DNA of 64,000 nucleotides from Eledone cirrhosa (taxonomy: Eukaryota), in NCBI GenBank assembly GCA_964016885.1, contig OZ024741.1, forward strand, positions 287,246,001 to 287,310,000, given 5' to 3'. The notes below the pieces were generated by a model. It did no database searches. It was not told the DNA's origin and was given only the letters and a program-made list of their open reading frames with translations. Each line of letters starts with the position of its first letter. Within the stretch, counting starts at the first letter, position 1. The position numbers and the translations under genes are program-made. Positions 15,531 to 64,000 of the stretch are shown in pieces.

Positions 15531-16305
15531 GATAAAACCCGCTGCTCTACTCAGCTGGGCATCTCACAATTTGTTTGTCTCTAGCCTCCTTGATATTGTT
15601 AGTTAGTGTCGTTGTGATGTTGTACAAGCCACATTCGACTTAAAACTTTTGCACAGACATTGCTGATACTTATCACTTAGTATTTTGTGTTCTTGCCTTT
15701 TGAAGTCCAATGGCGACAAGAAGGTGGTGACGGATACAGGCCTGACGGACTGGATGTACGCAGCTTCTGACCCGCATAAAGTGGCCCTTGGTAGTTACAA
15801 TCTTACTAGTTCATCAATTTTGGGCAGAGATGACTTTCGGTTGCTCCAAGGGTGACTAGGCAGCACTTTTAGGGATAGCACTGCTTACCAGTAAATCTGG
15901 AAGTGTCTAGAAAAGGTGATCCAAATATTGCCCGATTCATTAATCCTCCTGGTCAATTTAACGCGGCTGGCGGGTGTCCACTGAGTGCGCGAAACAACAA
16001 AATGCCTAAAAGATTCAGTATAAAACTAAATATATTCTGTTAAAATGTGAGGATGCTCATTGAAAATTCTCTACATATACTCTGCATACTCAAGTGTTGG
16101 TAATTAACCAACACATATTCGAATTGATATATATATATGTGTGTGTAATTATGCATACGTACACACATATATACACATACATACGTACGTATGGGTTATA
16201 TTAATAATAATATTCGATTTGTTTGTAAAGAAACGGCCCGATTAAAGCTGTGCCGTGCCGATGACAAAAATCATCATCCGTTTGTTCAAGACTGGCATTG
16301 AGGAA

Positions 16306-16346
16306 CAATCAACATGTTTCTGGGTCATTACCCTTCATCAGGACTG
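16306..16346 (-). ncRNA. Type I hammerhead ribozyme
   Basis: CAGTC-CTGATGA-aGGGTaatgACCCa-GAAA-CATG-TT^GATTG; intact core and palindromic ACATGT stem III. Confidence 0.85.
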
Positions 16347-16420
16347 TATACCTCTGCCAATCTGTTGAACGGTTGAAAATATACAGTATCTTCTGAAGTA
16401 CACATCGGCTGAGTAGCCTC

Positions 16421-16428
16421 ATTTGCAT
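16421..16428 (-). promoter_or_regulatory. Octamer motif ATGCAAAT (candidate snRNA-type distal element)
   Basis: Perfect octamer 80 nt upstream of HHR C3; position conserved in the copies at 48055, 48568 and 53465. Confidence 0.55.
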
Positions 16429-17853
16429 ACCGAGCGAGAAATACAATTATAATTATATATATACATATGTATGTGTGTTTGTTTTGTGTCTTTGTAGTTC
16501 ATGTTTGTATTTATGTTTACCGGTGTAAACCGGTGTCGACCAACGTCTGTTTACGTCAAAACACGCAACTACACGATTTGATACATATAATTTAAAAAAA
16601 AGTAATAAATAGTTTAGAATCAGTCCGAGACTCGATAAAAAAAATTGAATCTGGTGCTCCAACATGTCTATAGTGACACCAATAATTGAATATATATCAT
16701 CTTTAGAGAACGAATACATTGATAACAACCATTATCTTAAAAACTACGTTCTGATAGAGTTACATTTAAATATTCTCTAATGGAATTTATAGCAATAACG
16801 ATTTTCGTTTGATAAGCTTTTTAAGCTTATTATCTGGAAATTGATTTATTTTAAATCAATTGCTCCTATACATGTCTAGATTAATCAAAACGCAATTTTT
16901 TTTATTTAATATCACAATTCTAATGAAGTATGTACGATCGTTTGAGAGACGCGAGGTTGGAAAGAAATAAAGAGATGAGAAAAATTAAATATATATATAT
17001 ACATATATGTGTGTATGTGTATTTCTATGTACGTATGTGTGGGTGTGTATATATATATATATATATATTTGAGAAAAAGATTAATAAATAATGTAGGGAA
17101 ACATTTAAAAAAAGAATTAATGGATATGTGAACTCAAAGCTCAAAATAATAATTAAAAAGAATAAAAGACAGCAACATATTTAAATAGATCTTTTGAAGG
17201 GTAATTTATCTTATGTTCTACTCTCTCGATTATGCCCATCGTCCTCTCGGCTGCAAGTATATAAACAGAAGCACATATACATAAATATATTCGTGCACGC
17301 ACAAATACAAATACAGACATACACACTCACACGCAGACATACGCATACGCACGCATCCACTCACACATGTACACACATACACACACACACATACACATAC
17401 GCACACATGCACGCACACAAGCCAGATATTATGTGCATATATGTAGGTTAGTGGGGGTTATATGAATATATGCGACATCTGTGGATATCTTAAATTGTTC
17501 CATCATCTGAGCTATCCCATTCGTTGTATTAGTATATAGGGTGGTAAGTATTTTACTTTTCACCCGTGAACCTTTGATTTAATCCTCGGTCAATATGAAT
17601 GTGACGAAGTGTGTAACAACTCTTGTTAAACACATCTAGCAACAAGCTCAAATATTAAAAAAAATATGATAATTAATGATATGGAACCTTTTAATTTAAT
17701 AGTTAAAATCGCTCATACAGTATTCAAGAGATATGGGGGTTCAATTCCCTACTGGCGTCTCTGTCTGCTTTTTTTCCGTCTCCCGGGGTAGTTTACCTGA
17801 TTTATTCAACTATTCACTATATTTTGGAAACTCTATTTTCAAATCTTTTATTC

Positions 17854-47553: not shown

Positions 47554-47938
47554 TAAAAATGTTTTGAACAGTTCTTTGATTCTTATAATTCATATAACTG
47601 CTCTGTAAATCATCTGATGTTTTTTATATTGAGCTACTTAACTTACTGGTAATAAGGTAGTAATATATTACTGCCTACCACTATTTAGGGTTTGTATAAA
47701 AATATATATAACTGCAAAAGGTTTTTGTATTTACATAACCATAAATAGTATAATTAATACTAATTAATACTATATATATATATACATACAGGCACACATA
47801 TATATATGCACGTATCAGTTTACCGAACATTTATTATAATGTTCGCTTTGTTCGTTTGTAAACAAACGAACAGCCTGATTTACGCCGTACAGCGTTTAGG
47901 CAACCACGTCACCTTTTTGTTCAACACTGACACAGGAA

Positions 47939-47979
47939 CGATGTACTAGTTTCAAGCTTGTTAGCTATCGTCAGCACCG
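47939..47979 (-). ncRNA. Type I hammerhead ribozyme (intact)
   Basis: CGGTG-CTGACGA-tAGCT-aaca-AGCTt-GAAA-CTAG-TA^CATCG, with helix I extendable to GTTCAAC/GTTGAAC. Confidence 0.9.
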
Positions 47980-48212
47980 TATACCTTTCTGCCAGATGGT
48001 TGAACGTCCGAAAGTATATACTTTCCTTATGAAATTTAACGGCTCAGCAGCCTAATTTGCATATCGAGTGAGTTCAGTCGGCCAGGCGCACCGAAAACGA
48101 TAAATGGAATAGAATAAAACGAAATTTCATTTCTCACTCTTAGTAGGCACTTACTTAAATGTAAGTATGTATGTATACGTACATACATATATGTATACAG
48201 ACGTACAGTAAC

Positions 48213-48297
<85 letters not shown>

Positions 48298-48567
48298 CAG
48301 GCACACATATATATATGCACGTATCAGTTTACCGAACATTTATTATAATGTTCGCTTTGTTCGTTTGTAAACAAACGAACAGCCTGAATTACGCCGTACA
48401 GTGTTTAGGCAACCACGTCACCTTTTTGTTCAACACAGACACAGGAACGATGTACTAGTTTCAAGCTTGTTAGCTATCGTCATACACTAAGAGTGAGAAA
48501 TGAAATTTCGTTTCATACTATTCCATTTATCGTTTTCGGTGCGCCTGGCCGACTGAACTCACTCGAT

Positions 48568-48575
48568 ATGCAAAT
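48568..48575 (+). promoter_or_regulatory. Octamer motif ATGCAAAT in the retrozyme-like unit
   Basis: 81 nt upstream of HHR C3; also at 48055-48062 (-) and 53465-53472 (+). Confidence 0.55.
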
Positions 48576-48650
48576 TAGGCTGCTCAGCCATTAATTTTCA
48601 TAAGGAAAGTATATACTTTCGGACGTTCAACCATCTGGCAGAAAGGTATA

Positions 48651-48691
48651 CCGTGCTGACGATAGCTAACAAGCTTGAAACTAGTACATCG
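48651..48691 (+). ncRNA. Type I hammerhead ribozyme (intact core)
   Basis: ccGTG-CTGACGA-tAGCTaacaAGCTt-GAAA-CTAG-TA^CATcg. Confidence 0.88.
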
Positions 48692-48841
48692 TTCCTGTGT
48701 CAGTGTTGAACAAAAAGGTGACGTGGTTGCCTAAACACTGTACGGCGTAAATCAGGCTGTTCGTTTGTTTACAAACGAACAAAGCGAACATTATAATAAA
48801 TGTTCGGTAAACTGATACGTGCATATATATATGTGTGCCTG

Positions 48842-48878
<37 letters not shown>

Positions 48879-53262: not shown

Positions 53263-53866
53263 TAAACCGATACCTGCATATATATATGTGTGCATGTGTT
53301 TATATATATACATACTACTGTACGTCTGTATACATATATGTATGTACGTATACATACATACTTACATTTAAGTAACTGCCGTACTAAGAGTGAGAAATGA
53401 AATTTCGTTTCATTCTATTCCATTTATCGTTTTCGGTGCGCCCGGCCGACTAAACTCACTCGATATGCAAATTAGGCTGCTCAACCGTTAATATGCATAA
53501 GGAAAGTATATACTTTCAGACGTTCAACCACCTGGCAGGAAGGTATACGATGCTGACGATATCTAATAAGCTTGAAACTAATGCATCGTTCCTGTGTCAG
53601 TGTTGAACAAAACGGCGACGTGGTTGCCTAAACACTGTACGGCGTAATTCGGGCTGTTTGTTTGTTTACAAACAAACCGAGCATTATAATAAATGTTCGG
53701 TAAACCGATACGTGCATATATATATATGTGTGCATGTGTGTATATATATACATACTACTGTACGTCTGTATACATATATGTATGTACGTATACATACATA
53801 CTTACATTTAAGTAACTGCCGTACTAAGAGTGAGAAATGAAATTTCGTTTCATTCTATTCCATTTA
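53263..53866 (+). mobile_element. Retrozyme-like unit, ~1.4 head-to-tail copies (period 438 bp)
   Basis: taaaccgatac recurs at 53263 and 53701; octamer at 53465; HHR at 53548-53588 has a mutated stem III and cleavage triplet (CTAATG). Confidence 0.8.
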
Positions 53867-54094
53867 TATATATATATATATATATACATATATATACATG
53901 TGAGAAAAACAACAGACCCTCCATCTCAACTCTACTTTTGAAAAGCAGAAGAACTGCGAAACCGGTAAAGGAACCAAATAAATATATATATATATATATT
54001 TTTAAATATGACTCCAGTTGCAATTTCGATTTCATCTTTTTTTCTTTATACTTTAACTCGTGTAGGACACGTCAGTTATTTTTCATTTTGTAAT

Positions 54095-63832: not shown

Positions 63833-64000
63833 ATATATACAATAAATGTAATCTGAGTTTTTCGAATATTAATAATAACATTCGATTCGTTTGCAATTAT
63901 GCAAACAAGCCTCAATTTTATAGCCATGTCAGTAGAATAAACACTTCATTCTTGCTCTTATGTTGGCATGCAAACAGAACTGCAGACACTAATGTTTCGG

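Follow-up and report, generated by a model that had tools for sequence, protein, structure and literature searches.

The 64,000-nt stretch of the Eledone cirrhosa genome analyzed here (assembly GCA_964016885.1, contig OZ024741.1, positions 287,246,001 to 287,310,000; hereafter the window) carries at 16.2 kb a repeat copy that, with high confidence, we assign to a clade of retrozymes, non-coding hammerhead ribozyme repeats found in tandem and inverted arrangement in (TA)n. The clade comprises at least six non-coding repeat families (A, B, C, D, N, and O), all with an octamer block as well as a hammerhead, and to judge from its sequence this block, together with the TATA-like box behind it, probably acts as the element's own working promoter. 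Our reading as a whole, that a retrozyme clade uses a host U6-type upstream element as its own promoter, most likely one for RNA polymerase III (Pol III), is one we hold to be somewhat better than an even proposition. Directly observed in the DNA are the motif match, a fixed geometry, covarying helices, and tandem plus inverted insertions in (TA)n. Retrozymes themselves are already known, and what is new here is a retrozyme clade bearing a copy of a host U6-type upstream element.

A block shared with host U6-type genes

To compare the block with host genes, we used seven distinct host Pol III promoters, namely those of three U6, one U6atac, one RNase MRP, and two tRNA-Sec genes. Excluded from this set were two U6 and seven U6atac matches that lack the motif in place and resemble retrocopies, six U6 array copies with a short interspersed nuclear element (SINE) before the gene, near-identical array duplicates, and six weaker tRNA-Sec model hits (two of them viewed). 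All seven promoters carry TATG(C/G)(A/T)AAT(G/T)AG at -76 to -79 and a TATA box at -30/-31. Scored with a matrix built from them, families A, B, D, N, and O reach 19-20 bits and family C 10-16, vs 0.3-9.9 bits for eight U1/U2 regions plus RNase P; hammerhead families from outside the clade, three in number, do not exceed 0.7, and 1 of 3000 background windows scores 15 bits or more. The block of the 16.2-kb copy scores 19.2 bits (host leave-one-out range 14.2-19.2), and the 12-bp block is absent from all nine U1, U2, and RNase P upstream regions scored. By this match, the octamer block is the upstream element of the host's U6-type genes.

What follows the block is regularly placed. Across nine of nine representatives of the six families, the octamer-to-TATA distance is 41-44 bp and the TATA-to-YAG distance 30-31, with a second YAG at 27 in N and O; the start is predicted from this same TATA-YAG geometry, so the TATA-to-start distance is not an independent observation. 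From predicted start to hammerhead core the distance varies, from 14 to about 28. The parts of the 16.2-kb copy are as follows:

16144..16438, minus strand: family A copy, a single unit, 5'-truncated 9 bp before the motif
16418..16429, minus strand: 12-bp block TATGCAAATGAG, a match to the element upstream of the host's U6, U6atac, MRP, and tRNA-Sec genes
16409..16412, minus strand: TCAG at -57 relative to the predicted start, the place of TCAGT in host U1/U2 genes
16379..16385, minus strand: TATA-like box, 43 bp after the octamer start, with an A-to-G change in this copy
16365..16370, minus strand: 5' arm of the distal stem I extension, lying ahead of the predicted start
16354..16355, minus strand: predicted transcription start, AG, placed by geometry only, 30 nt past the TATA box and 45 nt before the predicted cut
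16305..16347, minus strand: type I hammerhead, predicted cut between 16311 and 16310, GUU triplet
16342-16347 with 16305-16310, minus strand: hammerhead stem I
16335-16341 and 16318-16320, minus strand: hammerhead core
16321-16334, minus strand: hammerhead stem II, A.A mismatch at its base
16312-16317, minus strand: hammerhead stem III, palindromic
16284..16289, minus strand: 3' arm of the distal stem I extension
16266..16270, minus strand: T5 run, a 2-nt insertion private to this copy and absent from 29 other aligned A copies
16198..16219, minus strand: AT-rich palindrome common to families A, B, and C, with part of the 3' arm lost from this copy

The host genes also yielded observations of their own. 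The U1/U2 set (L076-L091) has AATTA near -89, TCAGT near -57, and TATA near -30, and no obvious proximal element is common to it and the Pol III set (L061-L063, L181, L269-L271). In the single RNase P RNA gene (L180:1360-1500), TCAGT is present as in U1/U2 and the Pol III block is missing (1.7 bits), a hint of transcription by RNA polymerase II (Pol II). In the U6 array on C19, a SINE lies between TATA box and gene in six of 11 fetched copies (L067, L068, L070-L073), leaving the promoter ~190 bp away. Our literature search found no relevant paper on the small-RNA promoter architecture of this host.

At least six related families

The initial annotation had compared the 16.2-kb copy with a second family at 47.8 kb, here family B, and proposed that the helices differ in sequence while block, core, and spacing are kept. 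Family B is present in the window as follows:

47771..48482, minus strand: family B insertion with a full unit (octamer 48055-48062, core starting at 47974)
48309-48482, minus strand: 5'-truncated tandem piece of this insertion, which together with a (TA)n spacer precedes the full unit
48486..48859, plus strand: family B copy in inverted orientation, directly adjoining the tandem piece (octamer 48568-48575)
53382..53867, plus strand: older family B copy, 92% identical (octamer 53465-53472), with the next unit's start trailing at 53822-53867

The sequence swaps described for stems I, II, and III are all present, on the minus strand, and A and B are homologous, since 171 of 250 alignment columns are identical (68%; BLAST E about 5e-15). 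Retention of the octamer block in both families was likewise confirmed: a 32-nt block occurs at four places in the window with 0, 1, 0, and 1 mismatches (the 48.0-kb copy has 1) and in none of 100 shuffles. The 8-mer alone is not enriched there (9 vs 6.05 expected; 16 of 100 shuffles equally high). The octamer-to-core spacing, given as 80 vs 81 nt, is indeed nearly equal in the two families, but its true values are 87 vs 88 from the octamer start and 79 vs 80 from its end, the earlier figures reflecting a counting offset. Nor did it hold up as a conserved quantity: over the six families it ranges from 87 to 100, and we rejected octamer-to-hammerhead spacing as a constraint. The GTTCAA/TTGAAC pairing is kept in A and B but is identical in both and is thus silent on covariation; in families C, D, N, and O the pairing at this position is made by other sequences. 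Between A and B, two of six pairs in stem I and two of four in stem II are changed on both sides, while the central change in stem III leaves the 6-mer palindromic and would thus be compensatory only in a dimer.

Beyond the window, we sampled 120 evenly spaced 10-kb stretches of the 3.0-Gb genome. A strict hammerhead descriptor missed A and B because of their stem II mismatch; a relaxed version finds both, with none in reversed controls, and returns 48 hammerheads in the 120 stretches vs none in reversed sequence. The same stretches hold 16 TATGCWAATNAG sites (control 0), nine of them upstream of a hammerhead core (one degenerate), and it is these sites preceding cores that define families C, D, N, and O. 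Genome-wide, there are 2,889 first-look candidates for family A (top copies 88-93% identical) and 2,630 candidates for B (top copies 98-99% identical), 1,281 for C, and 580 for D, along with 1,058 exact pattern matches for N and O together (0 in the control). Family D, with its near-identical arrays, is a young family.

Hammerheads without the block were also seen. The 48 found in 1.2 Mb suggest a genome-wide number on the order of 100,000, a rough figure as the sample is not strictly random. Block-free hammerhead repeats include family E (L109, L233), whose 310-bp tandems offer a natural control lacking the promoter, and family F (L102, L133, L161, L163); the window itself holds, at 940 (plus strand) and 55495 (minus strand), a minimal Penelope-type hammerhead family with no promoter block.

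Covariation was assessed in seven representatives of A, B, D, N, and O, leaving out C, which has a stem III insertion and whose 3' half MAFFT misplaced. In this set 89.8% of cells pair and ten of 14 helix pairs are changed on both sides, with the structure drawn from the same sequences and one stem III pair existing only in the dimer; the covariation score is reached by none of 500 shuffles and the pair count by five, and in slid controls no more than three such pairs appear. The 12-bp block is invariant at ten of 12 columns vs 12 of 137 other ungapped columns in nine representatives (Fisher p=3e-8, an optimistic value as the families are related). Both the covariation and the per-site conservation of the octamer anticipated by the initial annotation are therefore found among the families.

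Within families the picture differs. Neither in 29 A copies (3.2% vs 4.1%, p=0.48) nor in 19 C copies (1.8% vs 3.3%, p=0.25) is the hammerhead core preserved better than other parts of the unit, and in ten within-family tests the block is better kept in A only (1.4% vs 4.1%, p=0.009; for C, p=0.45). Selection on individual copies found no support; because copies decay without sparing the core, the constraint would act on transposing lineages and not on inserted copies. The proposal of selection on both ribozyme fold and promoter-like motif is thus supported by the sequence comparison between families, but not for each inserted copy.

The hammerhead fold

A type I hammerhead core with three helices is present in all families. 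In A and B it combines a 6-bp stem I, continued through an internal loop into a long extension, with a 4-bp stem II that opens with a mismatch and a palindromic 6-nt stem III, and the cleavage triplet is GUU or GUA. The core and helices had been correctly described as kept, but it had been overlooked that the base of stem II is mismatched, as A.A in A and as U.U in B. When B and D units are folded as circles, they are predicted to be far more stable than 40 mononucleotide shuffles, with stem I closing across the junction. The 5' arm of the distal stem I extension precedes the predicted start, so this extension would form only in multimers or circles. An axolotl retrozyme with U.U at the base of helix II shows weak cleavage alone and good cleavage as a dimer (PMC7229834). 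Stem III of family C is longer and non-palindromic, and may permit cleavage as a monomer.

Units, insertion sites, and ends

Copies of the clade sit in (TA)n as a full unit plus a partial tandem unit, often accompanied by an inverted truncated copy; insertion junctions lie in microsatellites, and both strands are represented in 46 of 130 loci, some of which overlap. Tandem units running core to core number seven in B, one in C, and 16 in D (overlapping loci), and by a strict pattern there are none in 30 family A loci, which have partial tandems only. Units measure 446 bp in C and 452-518 bp in B, where a (TA)n spacer varies, and family D forms arrays of up to six or seven units with a period of 465-467 bp, which puts unit length at or just above the 150-450 bp quoted for animal retrozymes, with B and D above it. 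GC content is 0.35 in B units and 0.36 in D units, and the longest ATG frame is 22 aa over a D array and 92 aa over a B stretch with microsatellite spacers in it.

Tandem and inverted insertion in microsatellites is the pattern of Penelope-like elements (PLEs; PMC8557442), and is likewise described for retrozymes (PMC7229834). The repeats might accordingly be detached pseudo-long terminal repeats (pseudo-LTRs) of an autonomous PLE that owns the promoter, an explanation that we consider highly improbable. PLEs do share the tandem/inverted architecture and the microsatellite targets (PMC8557442), and the 12-bp motif is found near a PLE-like reading frame too (L124, L138, L075), but a PLE-like coding piece occurs in just three of 130 family loci, at no common position, compared with 16 of 119 sampled 10-kb stretches, and D arrays run head to tail with nothing above the 22-aa frame. 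In the three loci just named (near 7106 in L124 and near 3597 in L138), a minimal hammerhead stands on one side of the motif and the start of the Penelope-like frame on the other; these elements are apparently autonomous, and no TATA is seen by eye at the expected distance. Reverse transcriptase (RT)-like frames are present in L124, and their Atlas neighbors at 0.93-0.97 carry HTH_animal and RVT_1 on part of the members. Pfam and PDB returned no match for the PLE-like frames, whose putative assignment to Penelope follows from their motifs.

The ends of the copies bear on the template. Among 71 5' truncation points, four fall at the cut and two at the predicted start vs 2.4 expected at each, with no pile-up at either, and because they do not cluster there the template would have been continuous across the cut, as on a circle or an uncut multimer. 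At the other end, 85 3' ends were mapped, of which 83 are in the T-run zone, ahead of it, or no more than about 15 nt past it and two are in the promoter zone, a count that omits 49 copies without a mapped arm and 18 that run into another unit; by family, ends at or before the T-run zone make up 8 of 8 in A, 23 of 24 in B, 11 of 11 in C, 25 of 26 in N, and 16 of 16 in D. Ten of the D ends lie at a T5, and the other six 13-19 nt past the start of an earlier T4/T5. This zone lies upstream of the promoter, and the TATA box further on is an equally good match to the (TA)n target. The clustering of 3' ends could also reflect an RT priming signal instead of a terminator.

Several neighborhoods deserve mention. 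A tRNA-like SINE directly follows the AT-rich palindrome, at slightly varying points, in seven of 30 family A loci (L005, L009, L010, L011, L014, L017, L028), and one C copy in L123 shows the same adjacency; the palindrome is possibly a preferred target. At L185:1270-1620, a U6atac retrocopy, followed by a microsatellite, has an inverted piece of family C with ribozyme and promoter joined to its 5' end, which suggests that the same machinery copies U6atac RNA and family C RNA. A 31-nt piece at 63866-63896 of the window matches the AT-rich palindrome region of families A and C.

Which polymerase would read the block

We favor Pol III because the block is common to Pol III genes only, the predicted RNA bodies are free of T4, and 3' ends lie at or before the T-run zone. 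The bodies of five families, 1325 nt in all (bounded by insertion ends for B, C, and D, and cut just before the terminal T-run for A and N), hold 27 T3 and no T4+ runs vs 22 A3 and seven A4+ (p=0.011). T4+ runs occur at 6.6 per kb in the genome sample, and ten are found in the 559 nt that make up the rest of the unit in B, C, and D. For a tRNA-like internal promoter, ARAGORN finds no genes in seven of seven loci, a weak test where tRNA heads have decayed. GTTCAA was rejected as a tRNA B box: it is not kept in C, D, N, and O, and it lies upstream of the predicted start.

The same retrozyme could instead have its own promoter read by Pol II as a small nuclear RNA (snRNA) type, the octamer serving as activator site and TCAG plus TATA as core, which strikes us as possible although on the unlikely side. 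The word near -57 is TCAGT in C and TCAGC in A and most B copies, so that TCAG(T/C) stands at -56 to -58 in these families, as TCAGT does at -52 to -57 in seven U1/U2 regions, which too have TATA near -30; in family C, moreover, three tandem copies of a ~31-nt unit repeat the octamer with GATCAGT (L191, L199, L204). T-runs would be no obstacle to Pol II, the spacing from block to TATA is ~4 bp under that of the host Pol III genes, and newt satellite 2 provides a precedent (PMC2220036). On the other hand, the motif is found in none of the nine U1, U2, and RNase P regions scored, the word becomes TCAC/TCAA in N and O and CCAC in D, the AATTA at about -89 of seven U1/U2 regions is not seen by eye in A, B, and D, and the T4-free body and 3' ends at T-runs would go unexplained. 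Between the two enzymes, our preference for Pol III is a moderate one.

Alternatively, there may be no promoter at all, with the repeats expressed by host read-through and the block kept as an RT or splice signal, the YAG acting as an acceptor as in Penelope; we regard this as improbable. It would agree with a review that describes retrozymes as seemingly promoter-less (PMC7761336), with a Drosophila Penelope intron that ends at the 5' side of helix I (PMC4209133), with the pyrimidine-rich stretch preceding the YAG, and with the spread of hammerhead families E and F without the motif. It would, however, turn the match to seven of seven host Pol III promoters and the fixed TATA-to-AG distance into coincidences, a donor-like GT(A/G)AGT is seen by eye only in B and D, and splicing would remove the conserved block.

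Several points weigh against a U6-type Pol III promoter driving a functional ribozyme. The match to host promoters fades after position 12, with 19-column scores of 10-23 and 1.3 in one C copy, and the block lies 41-44 bp from TATA vs 46-48 in all seven host promoters, about 4 bp shorter; because of this difference we claim that it works like, and not that it is, a type 3 promoter. A TCAG-like word stands at -56 to -58, where U1/U2 have TCAGT. A T4 lies 107-119 nt past the predicted start in single copies of O and an N subfamily, and a unit-length RNA would require read-through of two to four T4+ runs, which does not sit easily with Pol III. The mismatch at the start of stem II is found in C as well as in A and B, and the lowest-energy fold of A and B segments lacks the catalytic core. 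A search of the locus against Rfam at E up to 10 yields no hammerhead, nor is there one among the best 150 of 235 window rows, a miss that we infer to be due to the stem II mismatch and short stem III. Finally, the relatedness of the families makes the statistics overstate independence, and the copies left out of the 3'-end count bear on that result.

A proposed cycle

Taking the U6-type promoter reading forward, we give roughly even chances to a fuller account in which the clade captured a host gene-external Pol III (U6-type) promoter, inherits it through ribozyme-made circles, and has spread U6-like promoters through the genome, in numbers on the order of tens of thousands. Here transcription, cleavage, circularization, and the partner enzyme are inferred from animal retrozymes (PMC7229834). 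Transcription would start at the AG 30 nt past the TATA box, which is 45 nt (A) or 47 nt (B) ahead of the cut, and many transcripts would end at the first T-run, with some reading through the next unit's promoter. Two successive hammerheads, probably acting as a dimer via the palindromic stem III, would then release a unit-length RNA, which a host ligase would circularize. With the promoter inside the circle, an upstream promoter would be inherited, one that an ordinary SINE would lose. A Penelope-type RT and endonuclease would copy the circle into (TA)n by target-primed copying that begins in the AT-rich zone before the T-run and continues through the cut site.

The 16.2-kb copy itself is likely a dead-end, inactive copy, since it is a single unit with no second hammerhead after it, is 5'-truncated, and has a changed TATA box as well as the private T5 at 16266..16270, which would stop Pol III early. 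Its 3' end is a frequent family A end point and adjoins a microsatellite.

Relation to known systems

With animal non-LTR retrozymes the clade shares a type I hammerhead in short, low-GC, non-coding tandem units and the proposed Penelope-like mobilization (PMC7229834); Penelope-like pieces are found in the same genome, as the retrozyme model expects. A short palindromic helix III is common to both as well, and U.U at the base of helix II, as here in B, is found in axolotl HHR_Amex2 (PMC7229834). Cephalopods are unnamed in most of the text of PMC7229834, whose supplement may list them. Penelope pseudo-LTRs with minimal hammerheads (PMC4209133, PMC8557442) have partial tandems, inverted 5'-truncated copies, and microsatellite targets in common with the clade, which differs in having no linked RT-endonuclease frame and a longer helix I with an extension. 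Compared with Pol III type 3 promoters, the clade shares the host's 12-bp block, a pyrimidine-purine step with a TATA-like box 30 nt ahead of it, and a body that has no T4 and stops at T-runs; its block is ~4 bp nearer TATA and lies inside the mobile unit instead of before a gene.

Newt satellite 2, the subject of work by Coats, Zhang and Epstein in 1994, is said to carry an octamer and to start about 46-47 nt before the cut, compared with a predicted 45-47 nt for A and B here. It is reported to be a hammerhead repeat with an internal snRNA-type Pol II promoter (PMC2220036). The polymerase reported there is Pol II, whereas here the shared element sits on host Pol III genes and is absent from U1/U2. 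The promoter of the Schistosoma repeat Sm-alpha is tRNA-derived. Our clade, by contrast, has no tRNA-like gene in seven of seven loci, and its element matches the gene-external promoter type. In Sm-alpha, a Pol III promoter precedes the hammerhead and an upstream unit transcribes the next (PMC6765202). Neither octopus hammerhead repeats nor a retrozyme with a U6-type promoter came up in a literature search whose coverage excludes most subscription papers, and in PMC13282606 the words ribozyme, hammerhead, and retrozyme each have zero occurrences.

In conclusion, a 2020 review describes them as seemingly promoter-less and assumes read-through, since promoters were not seen (PMC7761336), whereas our clade has a conserved promoter-like module; printed exceptions to that view are newt satellite 2 (Pol II) and the schistosome repeat (Pol III). 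In this clade the element can be named and its start, cut, and stop positions predicted. If our reading is true, the reason for the ribozyme circle would be the inheritance of an upstream promoter, which is impossible for a linear SINE.
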